Source: Escherichia coli (GTDB lineage Bacteria > Pseudomonadota > Gammaproteobacteria > Enterobacterales > Enterobacteriaceae). From it: DNA of 64,000 bases. The position numbers and the translations under genes are program-made. The notes beneath the pieces were generated by a model, which searched no databases, was not told the DNA's origin, and saw only the letters and a list, made by a program, of their open reading frames with translations. The stretch lies in NCBI RefSeq assembly GCF_030013595.1, contig NZ_CP122768.1; one strand, written 5' to 3'. Shown piece by piece: positions 792 through 57,991 of this stretch (within the stretch, counting starts at the first letter, position 1; each line of letters begins with the position of its first letter).

Positions 792-1769
792 TTACCCCAA
801 TAAATTCCTCACCGTCTGGCTGGAAATTCGCGCCTGACCGTTCACCGCCTGCAATAAAACCTGATAGTTATGATTGGCGCTATCCAGCACGCCGCCGAGA
901 TTTTCCGACGCCTGCACGGCGCTTTCCGTTTGCGGGAAGCGCGACATGCCGTCGATCAACTGCCGCGCCTTTTCCTGCTGTACCGCCATCTGCACACGCT
1001 GCTGATTAATGCTTTCTAACGTCTGAGAAATCCCCGCTCCGCCCTGTTGCAGGCTTTGCACTAAGCGGTCCGCCTGCGACGGTTCGGCAAAGGTTTTTAG
1101 TGGCATAAACGCTGATTTATCACCATCGGTGCGCACGCTTAGGGTGCTTTCAATGTTGGGCCACTGTTTTTCAGTGGTGGAGAAACTTATACCATCGGCG
1201 TTTTGATGCATCTGCACGCCCACGCGGCGCAGGGCGTTGGTCAGCCGCGTTTGATACTGCGCGGCGCTGTCATCCTCAGACAGCATCACCGCCGAAAGCT
1301 GAGTCTGCCGCCCGTCAGAGACGCTGAACATCCGCGTTCCCGGCGTGGGATTGTGTACCAGATTCGCCAGATCCGGCGAGTGAAAGCTCACCCGCGCTTC
1401 CCCCTGCAACACTGGCTGCAACTGGCGGTCCACCGCACCGCCGGAAAGCGCGGTGCGTTTGTCCAGCATCTGCATCAGCGCCGTACTCTGCGCCTGCCCG
1501 CCCTTACGCTGGCTGTGACGGTAATCGAGCAACTGCTGCTCCAGTTGCCCGAGATAATGATCCGCCTGCTGCAACGTGGTGAGCTGGTCGTTAAGCTGCA
1601 CGCTGTAACGCTGCGGGCGAGTGGTAATCAGCGGCGAGGCCGGATATTCACTCGCCGTCGCCGGGAGTTTTTGCCGCACCGCCTGAGTGGGCGCAACGGT
1701 TGACGACGATACCGCAGCGCTATGCGCGCCGCCGGTGGTGAGTGACGAAGAAGTAAGTCCGACCTGCAT
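792..1769 (-). CDS. Flag-2 associated protein of unknown function, Ser/Thr/Gln-rich (possibly LafW)
   Basis: 325 aa ORF immediately downstream of lfgL on the same strand (16 bp gap); no recognisable catalytic motif. Confidence 0.6.
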   Translation of the reverse strand: MQVGLTSSSLTTGGAHSAAVSSSTVAPTQAVRQKLPATASEYPASPLITTRPQRYSVQLNDQLTTLQQADHYLGQLEQQLLDYRHSQRKGGQAQSTALMQMLDKRTALSGGAVDRQLQPVLQGEARVSFHSPDLANLVHNPTPGTRMFSVSDGRQTQLSAVMLSEDDSAAQYQTRLTNALRRVGVQMHQNADGISFSTTEKQWPNIESTLSVRTDGDKSAFMPLKTFAEPSQADRLVQSLQQGGAGISQTLESINQQRVQMAVQQEKARQLIDGMSRFPQTESAVQASENLGGVLDSANHNYQVLLQAVNGQARISSQTVRNLLG

Positions 1770-1785
1770 ACTGCTCCTGAAAGAG

Positions 1786-2715
1786 TTAGAGAACGCTGAA
1801 TAAATTCAACTCACTCACTTTCGAGTAAGTCTTGAGGGTAGCTTCCATTGCTACTTCCAGTCCGGTAAAGGTGATCGACGCCGGGCCGTAATCGAGATCC
1901 TGTAATGAACCAATCAACTCATCATTAGAAGTAGAGATATCGGTCTGCGCATCGCTCAGCATCGACATGGTGTTCTGCGTCTCGCCGAGCGACGCAATCG
2001 AGGCGTTGAGGTCGTCCGAGGCGGTGTCCACCACGTTAACTGCGTTCTGAATATCGCTCTGCATCTGCGGATCGGCCGGGTCAACGTTTGGGTCTTGCAA
2101 CTCCTGCGACAGGGTATTCAGTGTGTTGAGCACATCTAAATTGCTGCCGAAGAAATCGCTCGCCGCCACGTTGGTATCCACTTCCACGCCGTTCGACACC
2201 GTGGTCTGGCGGTGGTCGCTGTTGCCCTGATAGCTGTAGCTGTCGGTCACGCCATCGCCGTCATCGTCCACCGCCACAATCGGCGGCTGATCGTTGATGG
2301 TACCGCCAAACACGTAATGCCCGTCTTCGTCCTGATAGTTCAGCGCCGCGACCATTGATTCGGTGAGCGACTCAATATCCTGCCCGAGACTTGCGAGCGA
2401 ATCGGCGGTATTGGTGCCATTCGCCGCTTCCAGCAGGTCGTCGCGCACCGCCAGCAGGCTGTTGTTGACGCCATCAAGGATTGATTCCTGCTGACTTAAC
2501 CCCGCCGACGCGGAGTCGATATTGCTCTGATACTGCTCAATCGCCGACTGTTGGCGGTTCAACTGGGTGATGCGCGTGGCGGCGATCGGGTCATCCGACG
2601 GCTGCAAAATTTCCTTGCCGGTTGCCATCTGCTCGACCACATGCGCCAGATCGCCGGAGAGATTATTAAAACTTTGCGTCATCGAGACGTAGGTTTGTTG
2701 GGTGGTTACTCGCAT
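1786..2715 (-). CDS. lfgL: Flagellar hook-associated protein 3 (FlgL family), lateral system
   Basis: N-terminus MRVTTQQTYVSMTQ ... SDDPIAA matches the FlgL N-terminal pattern; start taken at the internal ATG (2715) matching FlgL N-termini; follows lfgK. Confidence 0.85.
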   Translation of the reverse strand: MRVTTQQTYVSMTQSFNNLSGDLAHVVEQMATGKEILQPSDDPIAATRITQLNRQQSAIEQYQSNIDSASAGLSQQESILDGVNNSLLAVRDDLLEAANGTNTADSLASLGQDIESLTESMVAALNYQDEDGHYVFGGTINDQPPIVAVDDDGDGVTDSYSYQGNSDHRQTTVSNGVEVDTNVAASDFFGSNLDVLNTLNTLSQELQDPNVDPADPQMQSDIQNAVNVVDTASDDLNASIASLGETQNTMSMLSDAQTDISTSNDELIGSLQDLDYGPASITFTGLEVAMEATLKTYSKVSELNLFSVL

Positions 2716-2729
2716 TTTCGCGCTCCCGC

Positions 2730-4106
2730 TTAGCTGCACATTTCCAGCACCGAATCGAAAATCTCGGCCCCGGCGGAAATGACTTTCAGATTGGCTTCAT
2801 AAATTTGTTGATAGGTGATCAGGTTAACCGCCTCTTCGTCCATGCTGACGCCGCTGACGCTGCTCTGCTGGTTTTGCGCTGCGGAATAGACATTGGACGC
2901 GGCATCGACTTCCGTCTGGTTTTGCTGGCTGTAAATGCCGATATTGCTGATGATTGACGAGCACGCCTGCCCGACCGTCACGCTGCCGAGGTTGGCTATC
3001 TCCAGCGGTTCGGTGGAGATATTGATCAGCGCCTGTAAGTTGTCGCTGTTACCGCTTTCGTCCGGTGAACTGGAAAACGCCAGCTCATCGGCGGTGATAT
3101 CCGGGTTGACGGTCAGCGGGCCATCGGCGTTGCTGGCGTCATAAATAAACAGCGGCTCGCCGGGGTTGCCGTTGAGATCGTAGCCCTGCGCCAGTTGATT
3201 GTTGACCGCATCGGCAAACTGCGACGCCATGCTGTTGATGGTGTCGGTCAGCGGCGTCAGCACGTCGTTTTGATAATCAAACAGTGCGCCTAATGAACCT
3301 CCAGTGTCGGTGGTCATCGTCGAGGTGGTTCCGGCGAAGGTCAGCGACATGGTCGGCGTGCCGTCGGCGTTGGTTTCCAGCGCGATGGTCGAGCTTTGCT
3401 GCCCGCTCACCAGCGGTTGACCGTTTTTCAGGGTAACGTTGTAGTTGCCCTGGTCGTCGATATTGACCTGCACATCCATCATCCCGCTGAGTTCTTCCAC
3501 CATCTGGTCGCGGGCGTCGTACAGCGCGGAGGCGTTATCGCCGTTGGCTTCGGCCTGAGCGATTTGCTGGTTATAGCTGGCGATGCCGCTGGTGAGCGTG
3601 TTGATTTGCGACACCATCGCCTGCTGCTGGCTGATGATTTCCGTGCTTTGCGAGTCGATGTAATCCAGCGTGTTGTCGATACGCAGCGACAGCGCCCCGG
3701 CTTCGCTGATCACCTGTTCGCGCAGGGCGGAATCGTCAGGGCTGGTGGTCGCTTCGTTAAGGGCGGCGAAGAAGTTATCGAACCCGCCGCTCAGGCTGCT
3801 GTTATCGTCGCTCAGTACCGCTTCCAGTTGCGTGAGATACCCCTGCTGGGTGCTGTAATAGCCGTAATCGCTGGCGGCATACCACACCTGATTCACCTGA
3901 TACTGGTTAGAGACGCGGCGAATGCTGTCGACCTGCACGCCGTTACCGGCGCTGTTCGGCGAACCACCGCTGGCACCGATGGTGCTGATTTCTGCCACCT
4001 GACGGGTGTAGCCCGTAGTCATGGCGTTGGCGGTGTTTTGCGCCGTGACGTTCAGCTCCACCTGCGCGGTTGATGCGCCGCTGTAGCCGATGTTAATCAT
4101 GTCCAT
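2730..4106 (-). CDS. lfgK: Flagellar hook-associated protein 1 (FlgK)
   Basis: 458 aa; N-terminal MINIGYSGASTAQVELNVTAQNTANA and C-terminal flagellar rod/hook family helices. Confidence 0.9.
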   Translation of the reverse strand: MDMINIGYSGASTAQVELNVTAQNTANAMTTGYTRQVAEISTIGASGGSPNSAGNGVQVDSIRRVSNQYQVNQVWYAASDYGYYSTQQGYLTQLEAVLSDDNSSLSGGFDNFFAALNEATTSPDDSALREQVISEAGALSLRIDNTLDYIDSQSTEIISQQQAMVSQINTLTSGIASYNQQIAQAEANGDNASALYDARDQMVEELSGMMDVQVNIDDQGNYNVTLKNGQPLVSGQQSSTIALETNADGTPTMSLTFAGTTSTMTTDTGGSLGALFDYQNDVLTPLTDTINSMASQFADAVNNQLAQGYDLNGNPGEPLFIYDASNADGPLTVNPDITADELAFSSSPDESGNSDNLQALINISTEPLEIANLGSVTVGQACSSIISNIGIYSQQNQTEVDAASNVYSAAQNQQSSVSGVSMDEEAVNLITYQQIYEANLKVISAGAEIFDSVLEMCS

Positions 4107-4183
4107 GTTGGATCCTTACCGGTAAATCGTGCCGGTTAAAAGCGGCGTGAAGATGGGGATTCTTAAGTGGATAATGGTGCGCG

Positions 4184-4300
4184 CTGATGCCCTCACCCCG
4201 GCCCTCTCCCACAGGGAGAGGGAGAAAACCTGCGCCATATTCACCTCCGCGCTCAATCGGTCCCCTCGCCCCTTTGGGGAGAGGGTTAGGGTGAGGGGCA
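4184..4300. repeat. Inverted pair of GC-rich palindromic intergenic repeats (core CCCTCACCC..CCCTCTCCC-N4-GGGAGAGGG)
   Basis: Two units in opposite orientation at 4189-4224 and 4262-4298; the same family recurs 5 more times in the window. Confidence 0.85.
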
Positions 4301-4311
4301 AAGCGCGCCCC

Positions 4312-4611
4312 TCATTTCCCCTTCGGCGACAACTGCTTCACAATCATCGCCGCGATCCCAATCCCGTGCTGCTGCGCCAGGGTGTTACACAACTCATCGT
4401 CATAAAACCCCTGCATCATGCGCACCGAATCGCTGTTAAACGGGTTATCTTTCGAATCGAACAACTCGTTGGTTTTGCGCATCTCTTTGAGCATATTGCG
4501 TAAAAAAATCGCCTCAAACTGTTCGGCGGCCTGCCTGATATCATTGGCCTGAACCTTCGGCCCCATTAACGCATCGCTGCCGTCAATCCCGCCGCTGCCG
4601 TTAACTTTCAT
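4312..4611 (-). CDS. lfgJ: FlgJ rod-binding domain protein (no muramidase domain)
   Basis: 99 aa; motif FEAIFLRNMLKEMRKT typical of the FlgJ N-terminal rod-binding domain; lies between lfgI and lfgK. Confidence 0.8.
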   Translation of the reverse strand: MKVNGSGGIDGSDALMGPKVQANDIRQAAEQFEAIFLRNMLKEMRKTNELFDSKDNPFNSDSVRMMQGFYDDELCNTLAQQHGIGIAAMIVKQLSPKGK

Positions 4612-5726
4612 CAGATCACCTCCAGGTCGGCATCCAGCGCGCCCGCTTCATGCAGCGCCTGCAAAATCGACATAATGTCGTCCGGCGTCGCACCTAAACT
4701 GTTCAACGCATTAACCAACGTTTTCAGGCTGCTCGACTCCGGCAAACTTACCACGCCCGGACGGGCATGATTCACCGCAATATTGCTCTGCGGCGTTACC
4801 GCCGTGCGCCCGCCCGCAAAGGCATTCGGCTGGCTGACGTTGCTGGTTTCGTTAATCGAAACGGTCAAACTACCGTGCGACACCGCCGCCGCGTGCAGCG
4901 CAACGCCATCGCCCATCACCACCGTGCCGGTGCGCGAGTTAAACACCACGCGGGCGCGGATTTTCTCCGCCTGAACCTGCACATCGTCCAGTTGCGACAT
5001 AAACGCCACCCGCGCGCCGGGGCTGGTAGGCGCACGCACGGTAACGTTGGTGGAACTCTGCGCGGTGGCAATGCCGCCAAACGAGGCATTAATCGCCGCC
5101 GCAATGTTGTTGGCATCTTTAAACGACGGGCGTTTCAGGTTGAGGGTGATGGTATCGCCCATCTGAAAATCGCTGGGGATCTCGCGCTCCACCGTTGCGC
5201 CGTTAGGAATTAACCCGGCGGTTGGTGTATTAACCGTTACGCTCGAGCCGCTGGCCCCGGTGGCATTCATCCCACCCACCACCACGCTGCCCTGCGCCAG
5301 GGCATACACTTCGCCATCCGCGCCGTGCAACTGCGTAAGCAATAAAGTGCCGCCGCGAATACTTTTGGCATCTCCAATCGACGAAACGGTGACATCAATA
5401 GTCTGCCCGCGCGAGTACATCGGCGGCAATGTGGCGCTCACCGCCACCGCGGCGACGTTTTTCACCTTCGGGTCGATTTTATTCGGCAGCTGCACACCGA
5501 ACTGGCGCAGCATATTGGTGATGGTCTGGTTGGTGAATTTGACCTGATTTTTATCGCCGGTGCCGTCGAGGCCGACCACCAGGCTGTAGCCGACCAGTTG
5601 GTTTTCGCGCACACCCTGTACGTTGACCAGCGACTCCAGCGATTGCGCCAGCGCCACACCGGGCAGCGCCAGGCTTACGGCTACGACCACCGTCTTTATC
5701 CAGTTTTGCATTGCACTCTCCGGCAT
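4611..5726 (-). CDS. lfgI: Flagellar P-ring protein FlgI
   Basis: 371 aa with signal peptide; FlgI family by sequence and position. Confidence 0.9.
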
Positions 5727-6391
5727 TAGATCGGGAACAGAGGATGGTTAAACAGCCGCGTCAGCCAGCCTGCGGCGTTGGCGTCGCTTAACGCGCCGCG
5801 TCCGGCATAGGAAATGCGGGCGTCGGCGATCCGCTGGGAGGAAACAGAGTTGTCGTTCTGGATATCGTCGGCGCGTACCAGGCCGCTCAAGCGGATGTAC
5901 TCATCGCCCTGGTTGAGGGTCAGCCATTTTTCGCCGCGAATTTCCAGGATGCCGTTGGGCTGCACCGCATGGACGGAAACGGTGATCTCCCCGCGCAGGC
6001 TGTTCTGCTGCTGGGAAGTGGCGCTGCCGTCAAAGTCGCGGTTGGCATCGATGGAGCCGGAAAGCTTATCTTTGGTGTGACCAAAAATGGTCGGTGCGCC
6101 GATGTCGACGGTGTTGTTTTTACCGAAGTTGGTTTTCGCCTGTTTGCTCGACTGGGTGGATTCTTCGAGGATCACCGTCAGGATATCGCCCACGCGGTAA
6201 GCCCGCCTGTCGGCGGTGAGCGACCAGTTGTAGCCAGTTTCAAACACGCCCCCGGCACGCCCGTCTGCCGGAGGCGGCGCTTCGGTTTTCGGTGGCGCAA
6301 AGTATGCGTCGTCTTTTTTGACCAGAATGGCCTGCGATTCACACCCGCTAAGCAGGGGAAGCAGCGCCACCAGCCAGAAATAATTTTTCAC
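5726..6391 (-). CDS. lfgH: Flagellar L-ring lipoprotein FlgH
   Basis: 221 aa; lipoprotein signal LLPLLSGC; FlgH family. Confidence 0.9.
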
Positions 6392-6459
6392 GTTCTGCCT
6401 GTTTAGTGTTGCAGGCCACGGGGTGGCCGTTTTTTTGGTGGGTGCGGAGCCGATTTGTT

Positions 6460-6570
6460 CCCCTCACCCTAACCCTCTCCCCAAAGGGGCGAGGGGACCG
6501 ATCGAGCACAATGTTGCATACAGCGCCGGTCTGCTCCCTCTCCCTGTGGGAGAGGGCCGGGGTGAGGGCA
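6460..6570. repeat. GC-rich palindromic intergenic repeat, composite copy (near-identical to 16730-16840)
   Basis: cccctcaccctaaccctctccccaaaggggcgagggg ... ctccctgtgggagagggccggggtgaggg; spurious ORFs translate as PLTLTLSPKGRGD. Confidence 0.85.
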
Positions 6571-6596
6571 TCAGACCGCACGTTGCCCCCACGCCC

Positions 6597-7382
6597 TTAC
6601 AGCGTCTGGCTGATGTACTGCAACATATCGTCCGCTGCCGACACCATTTTGGCGTTCATCTCGTACGCGCGTTGCACCGTAATCATCGCCACCATTTCGT
6701 TGACGATATCCACGTTCGAGCCTTCCAGTGCGTTGTCCTGCAAAGTGCCAAGCCCATCTTCGCCCGGCACACCTTCTGTCGGCTGACCGCTGGCGGCGGT
6801 TTCCAGATAGAGGTTGTCACCCTCGGCGGAAAGCCCCGCCGGGTTAGCGAAGTTAACCAGCGTCAGTTGCCCTAACTCGGTCACGTCGCTGTCGCCAGGT
6901 AAGATCGCCGTCACCGTGCCGTCCTCACCAAAAGCAACATTAGTCGCCCCCGCCGGAACGTCGATTTCCGGTTGTAACGGCAAGCCCTGCGAGTTGGTCA
7001 GCACGCCGTCGGCGTTCACCTGCAAGTTGCCGTCGCGGGTATAGGCGATATCGCCGTTGGCCTTTTGCACCTGTAAAAATCCCTGCCCCATAATGGCGAC
7101 ATTCATCGCGTTGTCGGTGGTTTCAACGTTGCCTTCGGTGAAGGTTTTCTGGGTGCCGACAATGCGCACGCCGCTACCGAATTGCAGCCCGGTCGGCATG
7201 ATGTTGTTCTGGTCGAGCATCGCGCCCGGCGCTTCCTGGGTCTGGTAGAACAGATCCTGAAACATCACCCGGTCGCGCTTGAAGCCGGTGGTGTTAACGT
7301 TGGCGATGTTGTTGGCAATCGCGCTCATTTCAGCATCCTGCGCCGAGAGGCCGGTTTTGCTGATCCATAGTGCTGCGTTCAT
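6597..7382 (-). CDS. lfgG: Flagellar distal rod protein FlgG
   Basis: 261 aa; N-terminal MNAALWISKTGLSAQDAEMSAIANNIANVNTTGFK. Confidence 0.9.
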   Translation of the reverse strand: MNAALWISKTGLSAQDAEMSAIANNIANVNTTGFKRDRVMFQDLFYQTQEAPGAMLDQNNIMPTGLQFGSGVRIVGTQKTFTEGNVETTDNAMNVAIMGQGFLQVQKANGDIAYTRDGNLQVNADGVLTNSQGLPLQPEIDVPAGATNVAFGEDGTVTAILPGDSDVTELGQLTLVNFANPAGLSAEGDNLYLETAASGQPTEGVPGEDGLGTLQDNALEGSNVDIVNEMVAMITVQRAYEMNAKMVSAADDMLQYISQTL

Positions 7383-7426
7383 GGTGGTAAATTCCGTATT
7401 GTTTTGGGCCGCGGTTGCCGGATGCG

Positions 7427-7447
7427 GCGTGAACTTATCCGGCCTAC
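7427..7447. repeat. REP (palindromic unit) element
   Basis: gccggatgcggcgtgaacttatccggcctac matches the canonical E. coli REP consensus. Confidence 0.75.
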
Positions 7448-7456
7448 GATGTGCGG

Positions 7457-8194
7457 TTACGAGCCGCGCAATAAGCGGTTGCCCGCGTCGCTGATATCTT
7501 CGGCGGTTTTCATCATCTTGATTTGCGCTTCAAACTGGCGGTTCATGGCGATGGACGACATCATCTCGCTCACCGCCGAGACGTTGCTGCCTTCGAGAAA
7601 ACCGCCACTGACTTTGATATTTTCATCGCGCTGGGCCGGAACGCCGTCGGCAGTTATCAGCATCCCTTCAGGATTTTTCGCTAGGTTAGCAACCGGAATA
7701 TCCACCAGCTTCAGGCGGTCGATATCCATCGTCGCGGTCACGTCGCCGTCATCGGGCGTCACCGACAGCGTGCCGTCGCTGCCAAACGAGGCGATGGCGT
7801 TCGGCGGCAGAATGATCGGCCCGTTATCCCCCTGCACCAGATTGCCGTCGATGACCAGTTGCCCCTGGTCGTCCTGCTGAATGTTGCCGTTGCGGGTATA
7901 CACTTCGTTGCCGTTTTTATCCTGCACCGCAATGTAACCCGCGCCCTGAATCGCCACGTCCAGCGGGCGTTCGGTTTTCTCCGCTACACCCGTGCTGTCG
8001 TTCACGCCGCTGGCCCCTTCCTGCGCCATATAGCGCGTGTCGAAGCCACCGCCTTTCACCTTGTCGTTGGTCGCCATCGCCATATCGGCACGAAAACCAT
8101 TGGTGTTGACGTTCGCCAGGTTGTTGGCGCTGATCTGCTGCTCGTACAGGGTCTGAGAAGCACCGCTCAGGGCGGTATAAATCAAACGGTCCAT
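7457..8194 (-). CDS. lfgF: Flagellar proximal rod protein FlgF
   Basis: 245 aa; rod-family N- and C-terminal motifs. Confidence 0.9.
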   Translation of the reverse strand: MDRLIYTALSGASQTLYEQQISANNLANVNTNGFRADMAMATNDKVKGGGFDTRYMAQEGASGVNDSTGVAEKTERPLDVAIQGAGYIAVQDKNGNEVYTRNGNIQQDDQGQLVIDGNLVQGDNGPIILPPNAIASFGSDGTLSVTPDDGDVTATMDIDRLKLVDIPVANLAKNPEGMLITADGVPAQRDENIKVSGGFLEGSNVSAVSEMMSSIAMNRQFEAQIKMMKTAEDISDAGNRLLRGS

Positions 8195-9396
8195 TACATT
8201 GCCTGGAACAGCGCGTCATCGAGCTGCGTGCTGGTAGCGATAACTTTGGTGTTGGCCTGATAGTTACGCTGGGCGGTCATCAAGTTGACCAGTTCGCTGG
8301 TGATATCGACGTTAGAGCTTTCGAGCACGCCGGACGACAGCGTGCCGCAGGTGCCGGAGCCGGGAACGCCAATCAGCGGGGTGCCGGACTCGCCCGTTTG
8401 TACCCACGCGGTGCCGCTCACTGCCTCCAGGCCGTTTTCATTCGGGAAAGTCGCCAGCACCACCTGCCCCTGCAACATGCGCTCGCCGTTGCTGTAGGTG
8501 GCGTAAACTTTGCCATCGTCATCAACCTGCACACCGTTTTGCGTTGCGGAGGCGTAGCCGTTGGCAGCGTTGGTGGTGACCGAGAAGTCCGAGCCGTATT
8601 GCGTACAAGTGGTGTAATCGACGGTTAAGTCGATGGGTGCGGCGGCGTCGGTCTGAAACTCAATGGTCTGCGGTGTGGTTGGCGAGGTCAGCTTCCCGGT
8701 ATTCGGGTCGAAAGTTAAGGTCGTCGCCGGAACGCCAGTCTGCTGCTGACCGTCGAAGGTGTACTGCACTTCCCAGGTGTTTTCGCTGGTTTTGGTGAAA
8801 TACTGGCATACCGAGTGTTCGTTACCTAATGAGTCATACACCGTGGTGGTGTAGCTGTCGGTGTACGAGCTGCTGTTGGTCGGGTCGAACGGTACGGTGG
8901 TGCGATCGATAGCTTCATCGCTGGCGTTGAAGTTAGCGGTAAAGGTCAGGCTGCTGCTGGCCTGCGCCGGGATATTGCCGGTTTTGATCTGGATATCGGT
9001 GACCGTACCGGTTTGCAGAGTGCCCGTGTCATCGACCGGATAACCCTGTAAATAAGCGCCCGAGGCGTTGACAATATAGCCGTTTTTGTCGGTTTCAAAC
9101 GATCCGGCGCGGGTATAAGAAATGTTGCCCGCGCTGTCGCAGGTCACAAAAAAGCCATCGTTGTTAATCGCCAGATCCAGCGCGTTACCGGTGGAGACCA
9201 GCGAACCGCCGCGCGAAATGCTTTGCGCGGTGCCTGCCACGCTGACGCCCATCGCCTGACTTCCGGCATACATGGCTGAAAACTGGGTGGTCATCGACTT
9301 ATAGCCTACCGTTCCGGCGTTGGCGATGTTGTTACTGATCCCGTCGAGCTGTTCGTTAACGGCATTCAGCCCCGTTGCGGCAATTTCATAACTCAT
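8194..9396 (-). CDS. lfgE: Flagellar hook protein FlgE
   Basis: 400 aa; N-terminal MSYEIAATGLNAVNEQLDGISNNIANAGTVGYK. Confidence 0.9.
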   Translation of the reverse strand: MSYEIAATGLNAVNEQLDGISNNIANAGTVGYKSMTTQFSAMYAGSQAMGVSVAGTAQSISRGGSLVSTGNALDLAINNDGFFVTCDSAGNISYTRAGSFETDKNGYIVNASGAYLQGYPVDDTGTLQTGTVTDIQIKTGNIPAQASSSLTFTANFNASDEAIDRTTVPFDPTNSSSYTDSYTTTVYDSLGNEHSVCQYFTKTSENTWEVQYTFDGQQQTGVPATTLTFDPNTGKLTSPTTPQTIEFQTDAAAPIDLTVDYTTCTQYGSDFSVTTNAANGYASATQNGVQVDDDGKVYATYSNGERMLQGQVVLATFPNENGLEAVSGTAWVQTGESGTPLIGVPGSGTCGTLSSGVLESSNVDITSELVNLMTAQRNYQANTKVIATSTQLDDALFQAM

Positions 9397-9442
9397 TGTT
9401 TCGTCCTGTTAATTCAAATTTTGACAGCGTGCCCGTTGTTTT

Positions 9443-9521
9443 GCCGGATGCGGCGAACGCCTTATCCGGCCTACAAAACCATGCAGTTTCATGTAGGCCT
9501 GATAAGCGAAGCGCATCAGGC
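9443..9521. repeat. BIME: two inverted REP elements
   Basis: gccggatgcggcgaacgccttatccggcctac followed by inverted gtaggcctgataagcgaagcgcatcaggc. Confidence 0.75.
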
Positions 9522-9537
9522 AATTTGGCACCGGACA

Positions 9538-10251
9538 TCACGCCACATCACTGTCGGCATCGGGTACGCCAAACTGGCTAATCATGGTGAACGGCACTTC
9601 GCCCACGCCTGCAACATTGAGCACCGGAGAGCCGCCGTCGAGCGGGATGCGTACATCTTCCACTTCGCCGGAAACTTCAATCGGCACCTCTTCTTCCCCG
9701 GTGTTGGTCACCACCGAGACGTCGTAATCACCCGGCGGGATACCGTAATCCGCCGGATTAATCGAGAAATCCACCTGGCCTGGCCCGACGGACGAACTGC
9801 CTTCCGGGATCAGCGACACCGTATAGTCATCGCCTGCGGCATCGGTAAAGTGGAGATCGGCGGTGGTACAGGCGTCGTCAAGCGTGGCGCGACCATTAAT
9901 GGTCTGGTCGCTCACCTGCAAGGCGGTGGTCTGCACCATAATGTCGTCACCCACCAGGTTGCCGAGCGCCATTACCTGAATGTTGCTCATCAGCACCGCG
10001 TTGGTGTTGGCCTGCACGCTCATCTCTTCCATCATCGCCACCTGCGCCATCGACGAAAGCTGGTCGATGTATTCGGTGGCGTCAGTCGGGTCGGTCGGGT
10101 CCTGGTTTTGGATCTCGGCGACAAACAGCGTCAGGAAGGTATCGACGGGCGAGCTATCGCTGCTGCTTGTCGTGTCGCTGGCCGCCACGTTGTTGCTTTC
10201 CGCCGTGGCGGTCGGCTGCGGCGATTGCGCATTCAGCACCAAGGTATTCAT
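9538..10251 (-). CDS. lfgD: Flagellar hook assembly/capping protein FlgD
   Basis: 237 aa; N-terminal FlgD motif FLTLFVAEIQNQDPTDP. Confidence 0.9.
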   Translation of the reverse strand: MNTLVLNAQSPQPTATAESNNVAASDTTSSSDSSPVDTFLTLFVAEIQNQDPTDPTDATEYIDQLSSMAQVAMMEEMSVQANTNAVLMSNIQVMALGNLVGDDIMVQTTALQVSDQTINGRATLDDACTTADLHFTDAAGDDYTVSLIPEGSSSVGPGQVDFSINPADYGIPPGDYDVSVVTNTGEEEVPIEVSGEVEDVRIPLDGGSPVLNVAGVGEVPFTMISQFGVPDADSDVA

Positions 10252-10682
10252 CAGGCTTCTCCCAGTTTCAGCAAACTTTGCTGCATACTTTTCACGTTGT
10301 TGAGCACATCGACATTGGTTTCGAAATCGCGCGAGGCCGACATCATGTCCGCCATCTGTTCCACCACGTTGACGTCGGGATACCAGACATCCCCGTTAGC
10401 ATCCGCCAGCGGCGAATGCGGTTCATAGCGTTTCACCGCCCCGCCGGTTTGCAGCACGTCCTGCACCTGCACGCTGGCACCATCGATCGCATGGCGATGC
10501 GTTCCCGCCAGCAAGCTGTGGTGATACACCGCCGCAAACACCGGGCTGCGCGCTTTATACGCCTGTGCCTCGCTGCCGGCAGGTGCATTGGCATTCGCCA
10601 GGTTACTGGCAACGGTATTCAGACGTAGCGTTTGCGCCGTCATCGCCGAACCGGAAATCTGATAGATATCAGTAAATGACAT
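10251..10682 (-). CDS. lfgC: Flagellar rod protein FlgC
   Basis: 143 aa; MSFTDIYQISGSAMTAQTLRLNTVASNLANANAP. Confidence 0.9.
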   Translation of the reverse strand: MSFTDIYQISGSAMTAQTLRLNTVASNLANANAPAGSEAQAYKARSPVFAAVYHHSLLAGTHRHAIDGASVQVQDVLQTGGAVKRYEPHSPLADANGDVWYPDVNVVEQMADMMSASRDFETNVDVLNNVKSMQQSLLKLGEA

Positions 10683-10684
10683 GC

Positions 10685-11020
10685 TTATTTCCCTTCAATG
10701 GCCTCTCTGATGCCGCTGATTTGCAGATTCAGAAAGGTCAGACTGCTTTGATAATCCATACTATTTTGTGAAAACCGCGCCTGTTCACTGTTCAGCTCCA
10801 CGGTGTTGCCATCTTCCGACGGCTGCATCGGCACGCGGTACTGGACATCCACCGCCGCGTTATTTGCCCGTTGCATCTCCCTGGCAAAATCAATATCTTT
10901 AGCCTTGAAATTTGGCGTATCGACGTTCGCCAGATTCGCAGTCAGTAGCTCGGTCCTCTCAAGACGTAACTTCACTGCCTGCGGATGCACTCCCAATGCT
11001 TGTTGAAAACTGATCCCCAT
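10685..11020 (-). CDS. lfgB: Flagellar rod protein FlgB
   Basis: Start set at the internal ATG (11020) because the predicted sigma-54 promoter lies at 11057-11072; an upstream ATG at 11050 is the alternative; motif LANVDTPNFKAKDIDF. Confidence 0.8.
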   Translation of the reverse strand: MGISFQQALGVHPQAVKLRLERTELLTANLANVDTPNFKAKDIDFAREMQRANNAAVDVQYRVPMQPSEDGNTVELNSEQARFSQNSMDYQSSLTFLNLQISGIREAIEGK

Positions 11021-11056
11021 TCTCTGCGTCACTCCTGCTTCAATCCGCATACGCTA

Positions 11057-11072
11057 AGCAATCGCTGTGCCA
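11057..11072 (-). promoter_or_regulatory. Sigma-54 (-24/-12) promoter for the lfgB operon
   Basis: Minus strand reads TGGCAC-AGCGA-TTGCT, an exact match to TGGCAC-N5-TTGC, about 35 nt upstream of the lfgB start; a sigma-54 activator (lafK) is encoded in the locus. Confidence 0.6.
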
Positions 11073-11101
11073 TTTTTTAAGTGACTGATGAGAAAGGGTT
11101 T

Positions 11102-11839
11102 ATGAGTTTTCAATTTTGCAGGCGGAAGTTTTATTTCCTCCTGGCGCTGACCTTACCGGGCTACGCCGCCGTCCACCCCGTGCAACACAGCGCGCGGGAA
11201 CAAGTCAACGCCCAGGTACTGAATGCCGCGAGCCAGGAAATTGAATCGCTGGCGCAACAGCGGCGCTGGCATGACTATCGCTACACCTTTAAGGTCTATA
11301 TTCCCTCGCAGATTGCGACCGCCGCCCCCTGTGCGACTACACCCGGCGTCACGCTCACTTCGCCTGCGGAAATCACCCTCAACCGGATGAACTTCACCGT
11401 CAGTTGCCCGCAAAGCTGGCAGATGAACGTGGCGGTGCGCCCGGATGTTCTGGTGCCGGTGGTAATGGCGAAGTCACTGGTTGCCCGCGACACGCCGCTC
11501 ACGGCAAATGATGTGGAGTTGAAGCCCTACAACGTCAGCGCCCAGCGCCGCAATGTGTTGATGGATCCCGATGACGCGATTGGTTTCAGCAGTAAACACG
11601 CGCTGCAACCGGGCAGGCCCATCACCAAAGAAGAGCTGGTTTCGCCAGTGCTGGTCGAACGCGATCAGCCGGTGATGATTGTTTACCAGAGCGCGGGGAT
11701 CACCGCCTCGATGCCCGGCGTGGCGCTGAAAAATGGTCGCAAAGGCGAGATGGTGAAAGTGCGTAACGCCAGCAGCCAGCGGGTCATCAGCGCGATGGTG
11801 GCGGAAAGCGGCGTGGTAACAACGGTAAGCGCGGAGTAA
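11102..11839 (+). CDS. lfgA: Flagellar P-ring formation chaperone FlgA
   Basis: 245 aa with signal peptide, divergent from lfgB; ATG at 11102 preceded by agaaaggg. Confidence 0.8.
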   Translation: MSFQFCRRKFYFLLALTLPGYAAVHPVQHSAREQVNAQVLNAASQEIESLAQQRRWHDYRYTFKVYIPSQIATAAPCATTPGVTLTSPAEITLNRMNFTVSCPQSWQMNVAVRPDVLVPVVMAKSLVARDTPLTANDVELKPYNVSAQRRNVLMDPDDAIGFSSKHALQPGRPITKEELVSPVLVERDQPVMIVYQSAGITASMPGVALKNGRKGEMVKVRNASSQRVISAMVAESGVVTTVSAE

Positions 11840-12026
11840 TTTGCTGTAATACCGCGTAGCATATGTATGACTAGCTCCCAATATTCTGACTTTCTGACAA
11901 ATTTCATTGTGTATTTTGGATAATTATTGAGCACTCAATCACTACTGTTTAAATATCCAGATGATAACTATTTCATCTGGGTCAAATGAGTGATATTGTA
12001 TCACCAATAAGACCTACGGGGGTGCT

Positions 12027-13451
12027 ATGTCTGAATTTGAATTGCTCGTGAAAGATCTTCTTTTAAAATCAGAAGAAGACGAGAAAAAGCGACAAGAAAA
12101 AGATCGAGAATTAATTTCAAAGGTTCTTGAAATCTATGATCAAAAATATGTTGCAGAACTCCTACGAAAAGTAGGAAAAAATGAATGGAGCAGAGAAACA
12201 CTTAACCGTTGGATAAATGGTAAGTGTAACCCTAAACAATTAACTTCTGCTGAGGAAACTTTACTTCGAAAGATGCTTCCAGAACCTCCCGAACATCATC
12301 CTAACTATACATTTCGTTTTATTGATTTATTCGCAGGGATTGGTGGTATTCGTAAAGGCTTCGAAAATATTGGTGGGCAGTGTGTTTTTACTAGCGAATG
12401 GAATAAAGAAGCGGTAAGAACCTACAAAGCTAATTGGTTTAATGATGAACTAAATCATAAATTTAATCTTGATATACGAGAAGTCACTTTAAGTGATAGA
12501 GATGATGTTTCCGAAATGGAAGCCTATAATCATATAGACAAAAATATTCCAGATCATGATGTCCTTCTGGCCGGTTTTCCATGTCAGCCCTTTAGTCTGG
12601 CTGGGGTAAGCAAGAAAAATTCTCTGGGGCGTGCACATGGTTTTGAATGTGAGGCACAAGGAACACTATTTTTTGATGTCGCTCGAATTATTAAATCAAA
12701 AAAACCAGCTATTTTTGTGCTTGAGAATGTGAAGAACCTTAAAAGTCATGATAAAGGTAAGACTTTTAAAGTCATCATGGAAACACTCAATGAATTAGGG
12801 TATGAAGTCGCCGATGCTGGTGTGACTGGCTCAGATGATCCTAAAATTATAGATGGAAAACATTTTTTACCCCAACATCGTGAGCGTATAGTGTTGGTAG
12901 GATTTCGTAGGGATCTAAATATTCACAAGGATTTCACGTTACGAAATATTAACCGCTTTTACCCTCAAAACAGGCCAACATTTGGTGAATTATTAGATCA
13001 TGATGTTGACGACAAATATATTTTGACTCCAAGGTTATGGGAATATCTTTACAATTATGCAAAAAAACATGCAGCAAAAGGAAATGGATTTGGTTTTGGT
13101 TTAGTGGATCCTAAAAATCCAGATAGTATCGCACGAACGCTGTCTGCTCGTTACCATAAAGATGGCTCTGAAATACTGATCGATCGTGGCTGGGATAAGG
13201 CTGTCGGTGAAATCGATTTTAGTAATCCAGCGAATCAAGAGAATCGACCAAGAAGACTGACACCTCATGAATGTGCCAGGTTAATGGGTTTTGAAAAACC
13301 AGGGGGAAGACCTTTTAGAATACCTGTATCAGATACTCAAGCTTATAGACAATTTGGGAACTCAGTTGTTGTGCCAGTATTTGAAGCTGTAGCAAGATTA
13401 CTAGAACCGTACATACAAAAGGCTGTCAGCATGCAAGTTATTAACGATTAA
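12027..13451 (+). CDS. DNA (cytosine-5)-methyltransferase, Dcm / M.EcoRII-like
   Basis: 474 aa; C5-MTase motifs [40 protein letters not shown]; close to E. coli Dcm along its length; AT-rich codon usage unlike its neighbours. Confidence 0.9.
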
Positions 13452-13475
13452 TAATAATTAACTTTCACTATTGTG

Positions 13476-13497
13476 AGGCCTTTTTTATTAAAGGCCT
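13476..13497. terminator. Hairpin between the convergent methyltransferase and restriction enzyme genes
   Basis: aggccttt-tttatt-aaaggcct: 8 bp perfect stem in an AT-rich context. Confidence 0.5.
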
Positions 13498-13538
13498 CTA
13501 AATATATAATCATAAGTTATTATAAGTATACTTTTATA

Positions 13539-14744
13539 TTATATAAAATCTTCATACAGCGTTATTAACTGTGTGATAAAACCCTCTAACGTTAATAATC
13601 CATCCCTGATTTCCTCCGGATATTTTTTATGAAGAGGGGAAGGTACAACCAAGGTGACACCTTCAGCTCTCATTTCGTTAAATTGAGCAACTGAGACACC
13701 CTCTTGTAAGGTAAACAAATATATTTTGTTGATTTTATTTGCTTCATTGAGTGCCTGACGCCACCGATCCTTACATGTTGTTTTTACAGCAAGCATACGG
13801 AGTTTTTCTCTTGGAAAGTGATCATCATGGTAAGCTGCCGCTGATGGAAAAAGAAAATCGGGTTTCTTTTTTCCTTCAGTAATACATTGAGTAGCAAAAT
13901 GATGCAGTCCATGCTCAATAAAAATTTGCTCAAGATGTAGCTCCAGTGATTTCCCGGCTCGAGATTTTCTTCGATTACTAACAGAGTTAGCCATAGCTAT
14001 AAAATCATCTACAGAACCAAACCCTTGACGGATGATGTCCAGTACGTGAATTTCTTCAACCATTAGAAAGAGATCATATTCAATACGGCGGCGTTCTAAA
14101 AGTTGGTCATCTGGACTGGTTACGCCTGTTGGGTAATAACCCGCAGCATATTGAATAATCTCTAAGCCAGAAGGAAAGCTATGTTTCCAGCTTTCCGGAA
14201 TAACATATTCCTTTTGAGAGATTTTTGGCCTTGATGCGAGTACACCAAGTATTTCACTGGCAGGCCCAAACATTAAAGTTCCAGGAATGATCTCCCCAAT
14301 AGCTGATTCCAGTACATCCTCTTCTTCTGGGCTAACACAAACCCATACATCAACACTTTTGCTGTCTCTCCCTGGCTCATGTTCAAACGCAAGCACAGAC
14401 AAAGCACCTGTATTTTCCGGATCCTGTAGGGGACTGCCAGCCCCCCACCGAGTGATGCGTTTTTCATTTCTTGTTTGCCCGAAATACTTATTATTGTAGT
14501 AAATAGCGCGAACCTCACTGTCTACACATTCATGAGAGGAATAAGTTGCGCGCAATAAAACCGAAGGATTTTTTTCTGACGTATGATCTATAGATGGGAA
14601 AAGTTCAGCGACGATACCAGAAGGGATATATACCCCCACTTGATGCCCTCCTGTTGCACCAGTGTCGTTTGCTGAAAGACGTTTAATATAGAGATAGTTG
14701 TTACCACCGACCTTATCAAGCAGCCAATCTTGTAATCCTGACAT
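13539..14744 (-). CDS. Type II restriction endonuclease, EcoRII family (expected target CCWGG)
   Basis: 401 aa; N-terminal YIKRLSANDTGATGGHQVGVYIPS and the remainder match my recollection of EcoRII; convergent with the Dcm-like gene as in EcoRII systems; AAGGA ribosome-binding site upstream. Confidence 0.8.
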   Translation of the reverse strand: MSGLQDWLLDKVGGNNYLYIKRLSANDTGATGGHQVGVYIPSGIVAELFPSIDHTSEKNPSVLLRATYSSHECVDSEVRAIYYNNKYFGQTRNEKRITRWGAGSPLQDPENTGALSVLAFEHEPGRDSKSVDVWVCVSPEEEDVLESAIGEIIPGTLMFGPASEILGVLASRPKISQKEYVIPESWKHSFPSGLEIIQYAAGYYPTGVTSPDDQLLERRRIEYDLFLMVEEIHVLDIIRQGFGSVDDFIAMANSVSNRRKSRAGKSLELHLEQIFIEHGLHHFATQCITEGKKKPDFLFPSAAAYHDDHFPREKLRMLAVKTTCKDRWRQALNEANKINKIYLFTLQEGVSVAQFNEMRAEGVTLVVPSPLHKKYPEEIRDGLLTLEGFITQLITLYEDFI

Positions 14745-14797
14745 AAGACATCCTTATTTTTGCATAGTATCCGATTCAGATTTTTCCACATATCCAT

Positions 14798-14831
14798 CAG
14801 AACGACCAGAACGACCAGAACGACCAGAACC
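14798..14831. repeat. 9 bp tandem repeat (CAGAACGAC) x about 3.7
   Basis: cagaacgaccagaacgaccagaacgaccagaacc, 54-87 bp upstream of the restriction enzyme start codon. Confidence 0.9.
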
Positions 14832-14868
14832 AACATATCTGAACAAAAAGTAAATATGCGATAACGAT

Positions 14869-14896
14869 TAAAGTTTTGCCGCCTGTTAACCGCTTT
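14869..14896 (+). promoter_or_regulatory. Candidate sigma-28 (class 3) promoter for lfgMN
   Basis: Perfect -35 TAAAGTTT at 14869-14876; weak -10 (ACCGCTTT against GCCGATAA) after a 12 nt spacer; about 40 nt upstream of lfgM. Confidence 0.3.
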
Positions 14897-14934
14897 ACCG
14901 GAGTAACCCACCTAAATACCGAGACGAGGTTGCG

Positions 14935-15210
14935 ATGAAAATCACCCCGACTATGCCAGGCAATCGCCCGACAGTCACAACGGCAGGCTCCAGCCAGCCG
15001 CGCAAAGGCACGGCGACCACCACGACGCTAAGCGCCGACGACATTACCCAGGCGGGATTGCAGTCTGCCCAGCAAACACTGAACGACCAGCAAGAGAGCG
15101 ATATCGACAGCGATAAAGTGGCGCAAATGCAGGCGATGCTGGCCTCCGGCAGCCTGCAAGTGGACACCGAACAGTTAGCCAGCGACATGCTGAGTTTTTT
15201 CCAGAACTAA
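14935..15210 (+). CDS. lfgM: Anti-sigma-28 factor FlgM
   Basis: 91 aa, small acidic protein ending SDMLSFFQN; followed by the flgN homologue. Confidence 0.8.
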   Translation: MKITPTMPGNRPTVTTAGSSQPRKGTATTTTLSADDITQAGLQSAQQTLNDQQESDIDSDKVAQMQAMLASGSLQVDTEQLASDMLSFFQN

Positions 15211-15222
15211 GAGGCCGATGAA

Positions 15223-15651
15223 GTGAGTATCAGGTTACAACAGGTGAAGGCGTTGTTGCAGGGAATTCGTGACGATGACGCGCTGTATGATTCCCTGCGC
15301 GAACTTCTCCAGCGCCAGCGGATCTGCATGATTCGCCGCGCCAGCGAAGAGCTGCTGGCGGTAAACGAGGAGATAACCCATCACTATGAGCAGTTGCATG
15401 GGCATAGCCATCAGCGACACAGCCTGCTGAAAATGCTCGGTGTTAGCGTAAATCGTGACGGTCTGGCGCAGGTATTTGCCTGGCTTCCGGCGGTACAAAA
15501 AGCGGCAGCACAACAGTTGTGGCAACGCCTTGAGCAAAAAGCGGAACGCTGCAAAGCCTACAACGACAAAAACGGCGAGCAGTTGATTCGCCAGTATGAA
15601 TTTATTCAGTCTTTTTTAGGCAGCGAAGCGGATTTTCTGTACCAGGAATAA
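15223..15651 (+). CDS. lfgN: Flagellar export chaperone FlgN
   Basis: 142 aa helical protein; GTG start preceded by gagg. Confidence 0.75.
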   Translation: MSIRLQQVKALLQGIRDDDALYDSLRELLQRQRICMIRRASEELLAVNEEITHHYEQLHGHSHQRHSLLKMLGVSVNRDGLAQVFAWLPAVQKAAAQQLWQRLEQKAERCKAYNDKNGEQLIRQYEFIQSFLGSEADFLYQE

Positions 15652-15728
15652 CGACCATTCCTTCCCCCATCGCGGAAACGGATTTTCCGCCTGATTCACA
15701 ATCCTTTGTTTTTGATTATAAAAAATCA

Positions 15729-15745
15729 CGGCACGCTTATTGCAC
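15729..15745 (+). promoter_or_regulatory. Sigma-54 (-24/-12) promoter in front of the hypothetical gene and glycosyltransferase
   Basis: cGGCACG-CTTA-TTGCA matches TGGCACG-N4-TTGCA with exact spacing, 34 nt upstream of the ATG at 15779. Confidence 0.6.
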
Positions 15746-15778
15746 ATTCCGCAAAGTAATAAAGACTGGAAGCCACCT

Positions 15779-16609
15779 ATGAGTTTTATTGAATGTTACG
15801 AACCGGAATACGTGCGCAATTTTATGACGCAATATCCCGATTCGCCTTTGTACATCCGCAAGGTGTGGAAAAACGAGATTCGCCTGAGCCTGATGCTGAC
15901 AGAGCCAGAAAGTTGCGAAGCGGTGCTCAACGATGCCAGGGCCTTTGATTTACAGCTCACCTACCGCCCGGCGGAAGAAAATGCCGCAGAGCTTTCCGCG
16001 CGCGATGCGATAGTAAACCAGGTCATTTTGAGTACCCTCACGCTCCCCGATTTAACCCCAGAGCTTTCACTATATGCCATCGGGATTTTACTCTCCCGCG
16101 CCAGCAAAATGCCGGGCAGAGACGGAGATATTCTTGCCCGTTTGACGACGCTGCCGCAGGCGCTGGCCGATCATGCGAAAAAAGGCACGCTACAGGCACA
16201 GTTCGCCCAACTTCCGCCCGTGCCACAGCTGGCGCGTCACCTGGCCACGCTACTCGGGAGTTTTACGTTTGACTGGTCGATTTTGCCGGAAAGCCCGCGC
16301 AAAACTTCGCTGCCGTTGCAGATGCCTTTGCTGGCGCTACATGACGCCAACAGCGAAGCCCTGGTGCAACAGCAGCTTCAGGCTCAGTGGCAAACCACCT
16401 GGCAACAGCATTTTGCCACCGCGCCCTGGATGATGCGTAACTGGCTGATTTACCGCGTTTACCATGAGGTGATTGGACAGGCAGACGGAGCAGATTATTG
16501 CCCGCTGGTGTGCGATTTTTATCTTATCCGCACGTTAATCAGTTTTATGGACGCTGGATGGTTCTCCGCTGCGACAGGAGGATATTTTCGCCCTTTTTGC
16601 GGTGTTTGA
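15779..16609 (+). CDS. Hypothetical protein (Flag-2 accessory)
   Basis: 276 aa ORF from the ATG after the sigma-54 promoter; the 3' end may be frameshifted (see findings). Confidence 0.55.
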   Translation: MSFIECYEPEYVRNFMTQYPDSPLYIRKVWKNEIRLSLMLTEPESCEAVLNDARAFDLQLTYRPAEENAAELSARDAIVNQVILSTLTLPDLTPELSLYAIGILLSRASKMPGRDGDILARLTTLPQALADHAKKGTLQAQFAQLPPVPQLARHLATLLGSFTFDWSILPESPRKTSLPLQMPLLALHDANSEALVQQQLQAQWQTTWQQHFATAPWMMRNWLIYRVYHEVIGQADGADYCPLVCDFYLIRTLISFMDAGWFSAATGGYFRPFCGV

Positions 16610-16729
16610 ACGCTGGCGAGAGAGTGAAAATGCGCTGTTTATTCGCCAGCAAATTCAGTCGTTATGTGCGGCAGAGCCGCTGCTTTCAGCATTTTCGCTG
16701 CTGACGTGAGTCGCTCTGTGCGCGCTTTT

Positions 16730-16840
16730 CCCCTCACCCTAACCCTCTCCCCAAAGGGGCGAGGGAACCGATCGAGCACGGTGTTAAAATCGGCGCTGGT
16801 TTTCTCCCCTCTCCCTGTGGGAGAGGGTCGGGGTGAGGGC
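16730..16840. repeat. GC-rich palindromic intergenic repeat, composite copy (near-identical to 6460-6570)
   Basis: cccctcaccctaaccctctccccaaaggggcgagggaaccgatcgagcac ... ctccctgtgggagagggtcggggtgaggg. Confidence 0.85.
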
Positions 16841-16888
16841 ATCAGCACGCACATTCATCACATTCACCCCTTAACTCACCCAGACACC

Positions 16889-26374: not shown

Positions 26375-26527
26375 AGGGTGAACGATATAAGTAGCGACAA
26401 TAATCAGGATGTTCTGAAGCGTATCACCGGCGGGATTAACAAGTTCGAATTAAACGATAATAAAAATATTATTTGATGGTAAACAATGAGTTAGATATTA
26501 ATACTGTTAATTTGGACATCTGTGATG

Positions 26528-26568
26528 CCCCCTCACCCTAACCCTCTCCCCGGATGGGGCGAGGGGAC
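26528..26568. repeat. GC-rich palindromic intergenic repeat, single unit
   Basis: cccctcaccctaaccctctccccggatggggcgaggggac in the lafK / lfiM divergent region. Confidence 0.8.
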
Positions 26569-26746
26569 AGACCGCAGACTGATTGGCGAAAATCACTCCC
26601 ATTAAGCAATTAATCGATTAATTATTTTTTCATCCTATTAATAATTTGCCCCTTTCACTCCCCCTCTATTTAATACCTCACCTTGTGTCACTGCCGGATT
26701 TGCGTGCACAAAATCGCCCATACCATTACAGCAGAGAAAGTAAGCC

Positions 26747-55951: not shown

Positions 55952-56015
55952 AGCGGTCATTTATGTCAGACTTGTCGTTTTACAGTTCGATTCAATTACA
56001 GGAAGTCTACCAGAG

Positions 56016-57232: not shown

Positions 57233-57991
<759 letters not shown>

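Follow-up and report, generated by a model that had tools for sequence, protein, structure and literature searches.

The window, by which we mean the whole 64,000-nucleotide stretch that was analyzed, is a segment of the Escherichia coli chromosome in which the Flag-2 lateral-type flagellar locus is flanked by dinB/lafU and yafL. Over positions 10000 to 12500, it is 99.9% identical to NZ_CM149870; the gene order was taken from the PGAP annotation of that strain, and the assignments were confirmed with Pfam and NCBIfam. Because the window departs from NZ_CM149870 beyond approximately 30 kb, the gene labels of that strain are unreliable there; past about position 30000 (e.g., 55200 to 57300), in the distal T6SS/Rhs part, the ORF layout was unlike that of NZ_CM149870. 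The first gene of the flgBCDEFGHIJKL-type string, lfgB, is divergent from the flgA-type gene lfgA in a locus that also carries lafK and lafS, and the promoter PlfgB lies directly upstream of lfgB (Table 1).

Flag-2 was found in 1,279 of 5,426 complete E. coli genomes, with the PlfgB region at 94 to 100% identity. In the window, genes for a Dcm-type cytosine methyltransferase (12027 to 13451, plus strand) and a type II restriction endonuclease (13539 to 14744, minus strand) are inserted between lfgA and lfgM, and this insertion (12027 to 14744) splits lfgA from lfgMN. It matches the EcoRII/Dcm cargo reported for 21 Escherichia Flag-2 loci (PMC6993521). Twenty-eight of the 1,279 Flag-2-positive genomes covered at least 80% of positions 10000 to 12500, a query that reaches 474 nt into the insertion.

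LafK, encoded 14 kb from PlfgB, has a Sigma54_activat domain from residue 6 (7e-64), an AAA lid, and an HTH_8 domain at residues 284 to 317, with the motifs GETGAGKE (Walker A), GAFTGA, and LLLDEIGD (Walker B). A domain search detected no receiver or other sensory domain at its N terminus, and LafK has previously been recorded as lacking a sensory domain and grouped with PspF and HrpRS (PMC3162934). Thus, its activity is probably set by the amount of LafK.

Table 1. Features of the Flag-2 locus. Positions are those of the window, except where L001, which was scanned together with the window, is named.
Feature	Position	Strand	Remarks
lfgC-D-E-F-G-H-I-J-K-L and lafW, co-oriented downstream genes	792..10682	-	probable operon body
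lfgB, FlgB-like proximal rod protein, 111 aa	10685..11020	-	operon gene 1; PGAP; NF009328 6e-46
Shine-Dalgarno AGGAG	11032..11036	-	in the leader of ~26 nt
Predicted transcription start, ~11046	11044..11048	-	predicted from sigma-54 geometry, 12 nt 3' of the -12 C (11058)
Upstream in-frame ATG, not the start codon	11048..11050	-	~-4..-2 relative to the predicted start site
PlfgB, sigma-54 core promoter	11057..11072	-	TGGCAC-AGCGA-TTGCT; -24 GG 11071-11070, -12 GC 11059-11058
lfgA, FlgA-like P-ring chaperone	11102..11839	+	PGAP, Pfam; divergent from lfgB
PlfgB extended element GGAAA-N6-TTCCGCCTG	11138..11119	-	TTCCGCCTG to -24 element, 46 nt
PlfgB palindrome GGAAA-TAAAA-CTTCC	11124..11138		centre ~-85; lfgA codons 8-13
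PlafV palindrome GGAAA-CGGAT-TTTCC	15674..15688		40 nt before PlafV, non-coding DNA
PlafV extended element GGAAA-N6-TTCCGCCTG	15674..15693	+	TTCCGCCTG to -24 element, 35 nt
PlafV, second sigma-54-type promoter	15729..15744	+	CGGCAC-GCTTA-TTGCA; 34 nt before ATG 15779
lafK, sigma-54 enhancer-binding protein, 328 aa	25388..26374	-	Pfam Sigma54_activat, HTH_8
PlafB, third sigma-54 promoter	L001 8233-8248	-	TGGCAC-GCCTT-TTGCC; 31 nt before lafB/fliD
PlafB extended element GGAAA-N6-TTCCGCCTG	L001 8303..8284	-	TTCCGCCTG to -24 element, 35 nt
PlafB palindrome	L001 8289-8303		40 nt before PlafB, non-coding DNA

The sigma-54 promoter and start codon of lfgB

The minus-strand sequence from 11072 to 11057, TGGCACAGCGATTGCT, has no mismatches to the extended sigma-54 consensus TGGCAC-N5-TTGCW, and its GG and GC dinucleotides are exactly 10 nt apart. 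It lies inside the 81-bp gap between lfgB and lfgA on the strand of lfgB, with its 3' end 36 nt from ATG 11020, and it points at the gene across a short leader with a ribosome-binding site. When both strands of the 64-kb window were scanned for TGGCACNNNNNTTGCW (TGGCAC-N5-TTGCW), this was the single exact match. The number expected by chance is 0.14, and at least one exact match occurred in 13 of 100 dinucleotide-preserving shuffles. The PlfgB motif was also the highest-ranking match in the window, at 17.8 bits, in a scan with an RpoN position weight matrix derived from Vibrio sites with ChIP/RNA-seq support (PMC9817140); this score was reached somewhere in 6% of the shuffles. Among the best 25 matrix matches, it was the sole intergenic one with a nearby gene start downstream on the same strand. 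The motif alone is therefore only modestly improbable, and its placement and conservation carry the argument. The gene rpoN, which E. coli carries, was absent from the 64-kb window.

An alignment of 13 diverse LfgB proteins led to 80 related loci from approximately 25 genera (Escherichia, Citrobacter, Pseudocitrobacter, Phytobacter, Pseudescherichia, Enterobacter, Yersinia, Rahnella, Serratia, Pantoea, Erwinia, Kluyvera, Cedecea, Lelliottia, Izhakiella, Tatumella, Mangrovibacter, Rosenbergiella, Pseudomonas, Serpens, Methylomonas, and others). All 80 carried a GG-N10-GC element 29 to 72 nt upstream of the FlgB-like start. With the window included, 39 of the 81 sequences matched the consensus exactly, 28 had one mismatch (mostly TGGCAT), 6 had two, and 8 had three. 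Dereplication at 80% identity left 55 sequences for measuring information content: the core positions G, G, A and T, G, C reached 1.9 to 2.0 bits, the N5 spacer 0.1 to 0.7 bits, and no position of the leader exceeded about 0.35 bits; GG and GC were invariant in all 55. Within E. coli, substitutions in PlfgB were confined to the spacer and the tolerated C/T position. As read from these alignments, the pattern marks a functional sigma-54 promoter with a defined orientation. One of the records, L019 (CACSKA010000002.1), is titled "Chryseobacterium sp. 18061" and carries an Enterobacter-like Flag-2 lfgB region (LfgB identity, 80%); the assembly was probably mislabelled or is a mixture.

A chance match, with lfgB read from an unrecognized sigma-70 or other promoter, would be compatible with the shuffle frequencies, but its likelihood is negligible and it appears effectively refuted by the conservation pattern (the same position in 80/80 loci, invariant GG/GC, a drifting spacer), given also that no sigma-70-like promoter was predicted within 10800 to 11300 and that orthologous promoters are RpoN-bound (PMC9817140) or LafK-dependent (PMC5013049) by experiment.

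Five observations agree on the start codon of lfgB. ATG 11020 is the PGAP call, and residues 1 to 111 of the resulting protein align with positions 1 to 116 of the NF009328 profile at 6e-46, residue 1 meeting profile position 1 in both of the NCBIfam FlgB families NF009328 and NF005527. The LfgB homologues are 111 to 116 amino acids long, the N terminus M-(G/S/A)-I-S-F is kept across genera, and the reading frame of the Citrobacter orthologues is closed by a TAA two codons before the ATG. On these grounds, we conclude from the sequences that ATG 11020 is the true start. Transcription from sigma-54 promoters starts about 12 nt downstream of the GC, and the in-frame ATG at 11050 to 11048 would then lie outside the predicted transcript, at about -4 to -2. 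The AGGAG of the leader did not vary among E. coli lineages and is also present in the Citrobacter and Pseudescherichia leaders. No convincing minus-strand terminator was found in the inter-cistronic gaps of the genes that follow, and the string from lfgB to lafW is probably one operon, in which internal promoters are possible.

These results support each element of what the earlier note had proposed for this region. The minus-strand motif was exactly as it had given it, its spacing of about 35 nt to the lfgB start was accurate, and the position weight matrix scan that it had suggested put the motif first in the window. The sigma-54 assignment itself is upheld by the exact consensus, the correct -24/-12 spacing, and the same placement in about 25 genera amid drifting spacer and flanks, and a sigma-54 activator is indeed encoded in the same locus. 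It had further preferred ATG 11020 because the upstream ATG falls between promoter and start; this argument is sound, as that ATG precedes the predicted transcription start at about 11046. Neither PlafV nor the palindrome described below appears in that note.

The element is also close to lfgA: in the window, 30 nt separate the -24 element from the lfgA ATG (11102), and in all loci, the element is located 14 to 34 nt upstream of the lfgA start codon. Neither the relaxed sigma-54 scan nor the sigma-70-like prediction over 10800 to 11300 detected a separate promoter for lfgA. The element might thus serve lfgA as, for instance, an operator, an element in the 5' untranslated region of its mRNA, or a roadblock formed by the sigma-54 holoenzyme, instead of or besides serving lfgB. 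However, the conserved positions are those of a sigma-54 promoter oriented toward lfgB, with an unconstrained spacer, and the same module stands before lafV and lafB, where a divergent gene is absent. In addition, an Rfam search of positions 10000 to 16500 returned no match to any RNA family. We consider a role in lfgA expression very unlikely to account for the element, and a promoter that drives lfgB remains the preferred interpretation.

Other sigma-54 sites in the Flag-2 locus

We scanned the whole locus with GG and GC fixed and up to two or three mismatches allowed. Three intergenic sigma-54 sites that face a gene start were found in Flag-2, at spacings of 31 to 36 nt from that start. Besides PlfgB, these were PlafV and PlafB. 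PlafV precedes lafV, which encodes a FliB-like flagellin lysine methylase and is followed by a GT2 glycosyltransferase gene; lafV belongs to variable region VR1 (PMC6993521). The PlafV sequence was unchanged in six diverged E. coli lineages, and a sigma-54 site with the upstream palindrome described below is likewise found ahead of LafV-like ORFs in Pseudocitrobacter and in three species of Citrobacter. PlafB is located outside the window, approximately 1.8 kb before window position 1, and heads an operon with the sigma-28 gene lafS. Three other sigma-54-like sites, at 3971 to 3986 (plus strand), 23667 to 23682 (minus strand), and 56901 to 56916 (minus strand), were rejected as chance matches: these near-consensus sites are in coding regions and lack both the palindrome and a plausible start downstream.

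Some features around these promoters were noted in passing. In the window, lafV (15779 to 16609) is apparently truncated, with 276 codons versus about 310 elsewhere, and it carries the PGAP label "frameshifted" in NZ_CM149870. The apparent start of the glycosyltransferase ORF (16664 to 19360) differs from the PGAP call. Further upstream of PlafB are a separate lafA terminator hairpin and a REP-like element. A regular-expression search of the locus for sigma-28 promoters gave nothing convincing; the LafS consensus may differ from the one used, which makes this result uninformative.

Upstream of lafK and lfiM, no correctly oriented sigma-54 motif was present with GG/GC fixed and up to three mismatches. 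The 372-bp divergent intergenic region between these two genes contains a G+C-rich repeat-like element, CCCCCTCACCCTAACCCTCTCCCCGGATGGGGCGAGGGGAC, at 26515 to 26580, which we take to resemble the boxC-type intergenic repeats of E. coli. The statement in the earlier note that neither gene has a comparable motif thus survived the relaxed scan. Its suggestion that lafK and lfiM occupy a higher tier is supported by the absence of the motif and agrees with the class I status of the fliM(L) and lafK operons in Vibrio and Aeromonas (PMC3930126, PMC5013049). In an Aeromonas lafK mutant, PfliM activity was reduced too (PMC5013049), so the tiers of Flag-2 may be less clean.

A conserved palindrome upstream of the promoters

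Each of the three promoters is preceded by a palindrome, GGAAA-N5-TTTCC, and by an extended form of it, the 14-base element GGAAA-N6-TTCCGCCTG. This element had three perfect matches in the window and L001 together, one upstream of each sigma-54 promoter, and with up to two mismatches it occurred seven times in the window versus 0.68 expected. The distance from the 3' end of the palindrome to the promoter was 51 nt at PlfgB and 40 nt at both PlafV and PlafB, a difference of 11 nt, or one helical turn. Copies with two mismatches were also seen inside lafV (15867 to 15886, plus strand), about 110 nt downstream of the predicted lafV start site, and inside lfgG (6950 to 6969, minus strand).

The palindrome, with at most one mismatch, was present in 43 of the 55 dereplicated lfgB loci, and its N5 centre varied freely; a control segment taken 300 nt further into lfgA had it in 0 of 55. 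It started at -66 to -70 from the promoter element in 43 of 55 loci (most Enterobacterales), at -76 in Tatumella and Rosenbergiella, and at -122 or -123 in Pseudomonas and Serpens; it was not found in the distant Methylomonas locus (L082). The gap between palindrome and promoter was 40 or 51 nt in E. coli, mostly 53 nt in other Enterobacterales, about 61 nt in Tatumella and Rosenbergiella, and 107 to 108 nt in Pseudomonas, and these distances were not uniformly in helical phase. In 44 loci, the GGAA and TTCC cores were invariant, including two synonymous third-codon positions of lfgA (xGG and the Phe codon TTC). The 80 loci contained 18 further sigma-54-like matches. Six of these, in other genera, had the palindrome upstream at a distance of 40 or 51 nt, and all six precede LafV-like ORFs; the other twelve, which lack it, look like chance matches. 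The palindrome was absent from the intergenic region between lafK and lfiM.

A conserved TTTCC block at -57 to -53 was at first rejected as an enhancer, since it shifts with the lfgA reading frame. It was reinstated because the full palindrome occurs at two non-coding promoters, across genera, and at synonymous positions. In many loci, the stretch from the palindrome to the -24 element seemed to hold an IHF-type site (WATCAA-N4-TTR with an A-tract), but such a site is not claimed: the match in the window is poor, with two mismatches, and its conserved TCAT contains the lfgA start codon in a large clade in which lfgA starts at -14. In several genera (L018, L020, L022, L026, and L030), extra GGAAA or TTTCC half-sites were observed immediately before the main palindrome, approximately 80 to 95 nt upstream of the sigma-54 element. 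These suggest a second activator-binding site, and such sites are common in the enhancers of bacterial enhancer-binding proteins (bEBPs). A literature search that did not extend to Ren 2005, Stewart & McCarter 2003, and Wilhelms 2013 found no published description of the palindrome or of a LafK operator.

We propose that GGAAA-N5-TTTCC is a previously undescribed LafK enhancer which, together with the -24/-12 element, would define a three-promoter LafK regulon (the lfgB operon, lafV with the glycosyltransferase gene, and lafB...lafS), a reading of the sequences on which we are evenly divided. The main competing explanation keeps the sigma-54 promoter and denies the palindrome to LafK: another regulator, such as the OmpR-type LafZ, may bind there, or the signal peptide of LfgA may impose the conservation, with LafK acting elsewhere or from solution. 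At PlfgB, the palindrome is locked in the codons of lfgA and keeps a constant codon phase across loci, so that part of its conservation could be at the protein level (R/G-K-x-x-F), and LafK is tied to the palindrome by sequence association. Among the bEBPs of this flagellar group, some bind on the downstream side of the start site and some act without binding DNA. FlgR and CtcC are examples of bEBPs that lack a receiver or a DNA-binding domain and work without an enhancer (PMC3162934). LafK, however, keeps its HTH_8 domain, and the 10-bp spacing of the half-sites fits a dimeric helix-turn-helix protein, whereas direct repeats are the usual target of OmpR-type proteins. A coding constraint is disfavored by the invariance of the synonymous lfgA positions, the copies in non-coding DNA at PlafV and PlafB, and the link to LafV-like ORFs, the palindrome accompanying 6/6 of the extra sigma-54 sites at flagellar genes and 0/12 of the other matches. 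We therefore regard this competing explanation as somewhat unlikely and proceed with the palindrome as a candidate LafK site.

LafK and the Flag-2 hierarchy

Taken together, we interpret PlfgB as the class II, RpoN-dependent promoter of the Flag-2 rod/hook operon, activated by LafK, with a probability of about 0.88; the dependence of lfgB on RpoN and LafK in E. coli is what the motif, its conservation, and orthology point to. Predictions of the same kind are that LafK binds the palindrome, where transcription starts, and how far the operon reaches. In the proposed mechanism, sigma-54 RNA polymerase would form a closed complex on 11072 to 11057 that is unable to open unaided. LafK most likely binds GGAAA-N5-TTTCC, whose centre is about 85 bp before the start, in the first codons of lfgA, and the GAFTGA loop of LafK would touch sigma-54 across the A/T-rich spacer, with ATP hydrolysis opening the promoter. 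Transcription from about 11046 would then yield a leader of about 26 nt with the AGGAG, followed by ATG 11020 and the rod, hook, ring, and junction genes. The same palindrome-plus-promoter module would also drive lafV and, outside the window, the lafB...lafS (sigma-28) operon. The shared module at lfgB, lafV, and lafB would place LafK one tier above these genes, and lafK-lfiE..J and lfiM..lfhA, which are without the module, would be one tier higher still.

Sigma-54 sites upstream of lfgB and lafB have been noted before in E. coli PCN033, a swarming strain (Liu et al. 2015, PMC4578781). The species, locus, gene, and consensus (TGGCAC-N5-TTGC) are the same, and LafK of PCN033 has a full sigma-54 activation domain. 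That report consists of one sentence, in which coordinates, conservation, the start-codon argument, the upstream element, and PlafV go unmentioned (PMC4578781), and the window comes from a different isolate, with the EcoRII/Dcm insertion beside lfgA. In Aeromonas hydrophila, a lateral PflgB-lacZ fusion fell from 970 to 20 MU in a lafK mutant (approximately 50-fold), and the promoter is placed in class II (PMC5013049); the Vibrio parahaemolyticus flgB2 promoter site, ATGGCACGTATCTTGT, was bound by RpoN in an EMSA (PMC9817140). These systems share with E. coli Flag-2 the orthologous flgB..L string, LafK, and the sigma-54 -24/-12 element. However, their hosts swarm by means of the lateral system and possess polar flagella as well, whereas E. 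coli Flag-2 exists beside the peritrichous Flag-1 system under FlhDC/sigma-70. Given the PCN033 sites and the Aeromonas and Vibrio experiments, the finding of an lfgB promoter is correct but already known: the sigma-54 promoter of lfgB is an existing prediction in E. coli and an experimental fact in orthologous systems. The conserved upstream palindrome is the only part that is possibly new.

Among better-known activators, PspF at pspA and HrpR/HrpS at hrpL resemble LafK in having an AAA+ domain and a C-terminal helix-turn-helix without a sensory domain (PMC3162934). They too act at consensus sigma-54 promoters from upstream sites within about 100 bp, as proposed here for LafK. In contrast to PspF, which is controlled by the anti-activator PspA, LafK has no known or evident partner and is presumably controlled via its own transcription, and the proposed LafK operator is unrelated in sequence to the PspF and HrpRS operators. 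FleQ and FlrA of polar flagellates likewise exert NtrC-family AAA+ control over sigma-54 rod/hook genes, but they differ from LafK in having an N-terminal FleQ/REC-like domain and a response to c-di-GMP. The published FleQ box does not resemble GGAAA-N5-TTTCC, and binding by FleQ can occur on the downstream side of the start site.

For annotation, the results fix the start codon of lfgB and mark class II of the Flag-2 hierarchy, and the regulatory region is intact in the 1,279 of 5,426 complete E. coli genomes that carry Flag-2. If the palindrome is a LafK site, a module of palindrome and -24/-12 element would have been kept from Escherichia to Pseudomonas, lfgA codons 8 to 13 would encode a signal peptide and an enhancer with the same bases, and LafK binding could couple the activation of lfgB to the control of lfgA. 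The combination of palindrome and -24/-12 element would also provide a sequence signature with which to search genomes for LafK targets. Overall, the regulation of Flag-2 in Enterobacterales is nearly unstudied by experiment, and the lafV promoter and the candidate LafK operator make direct tests possible.
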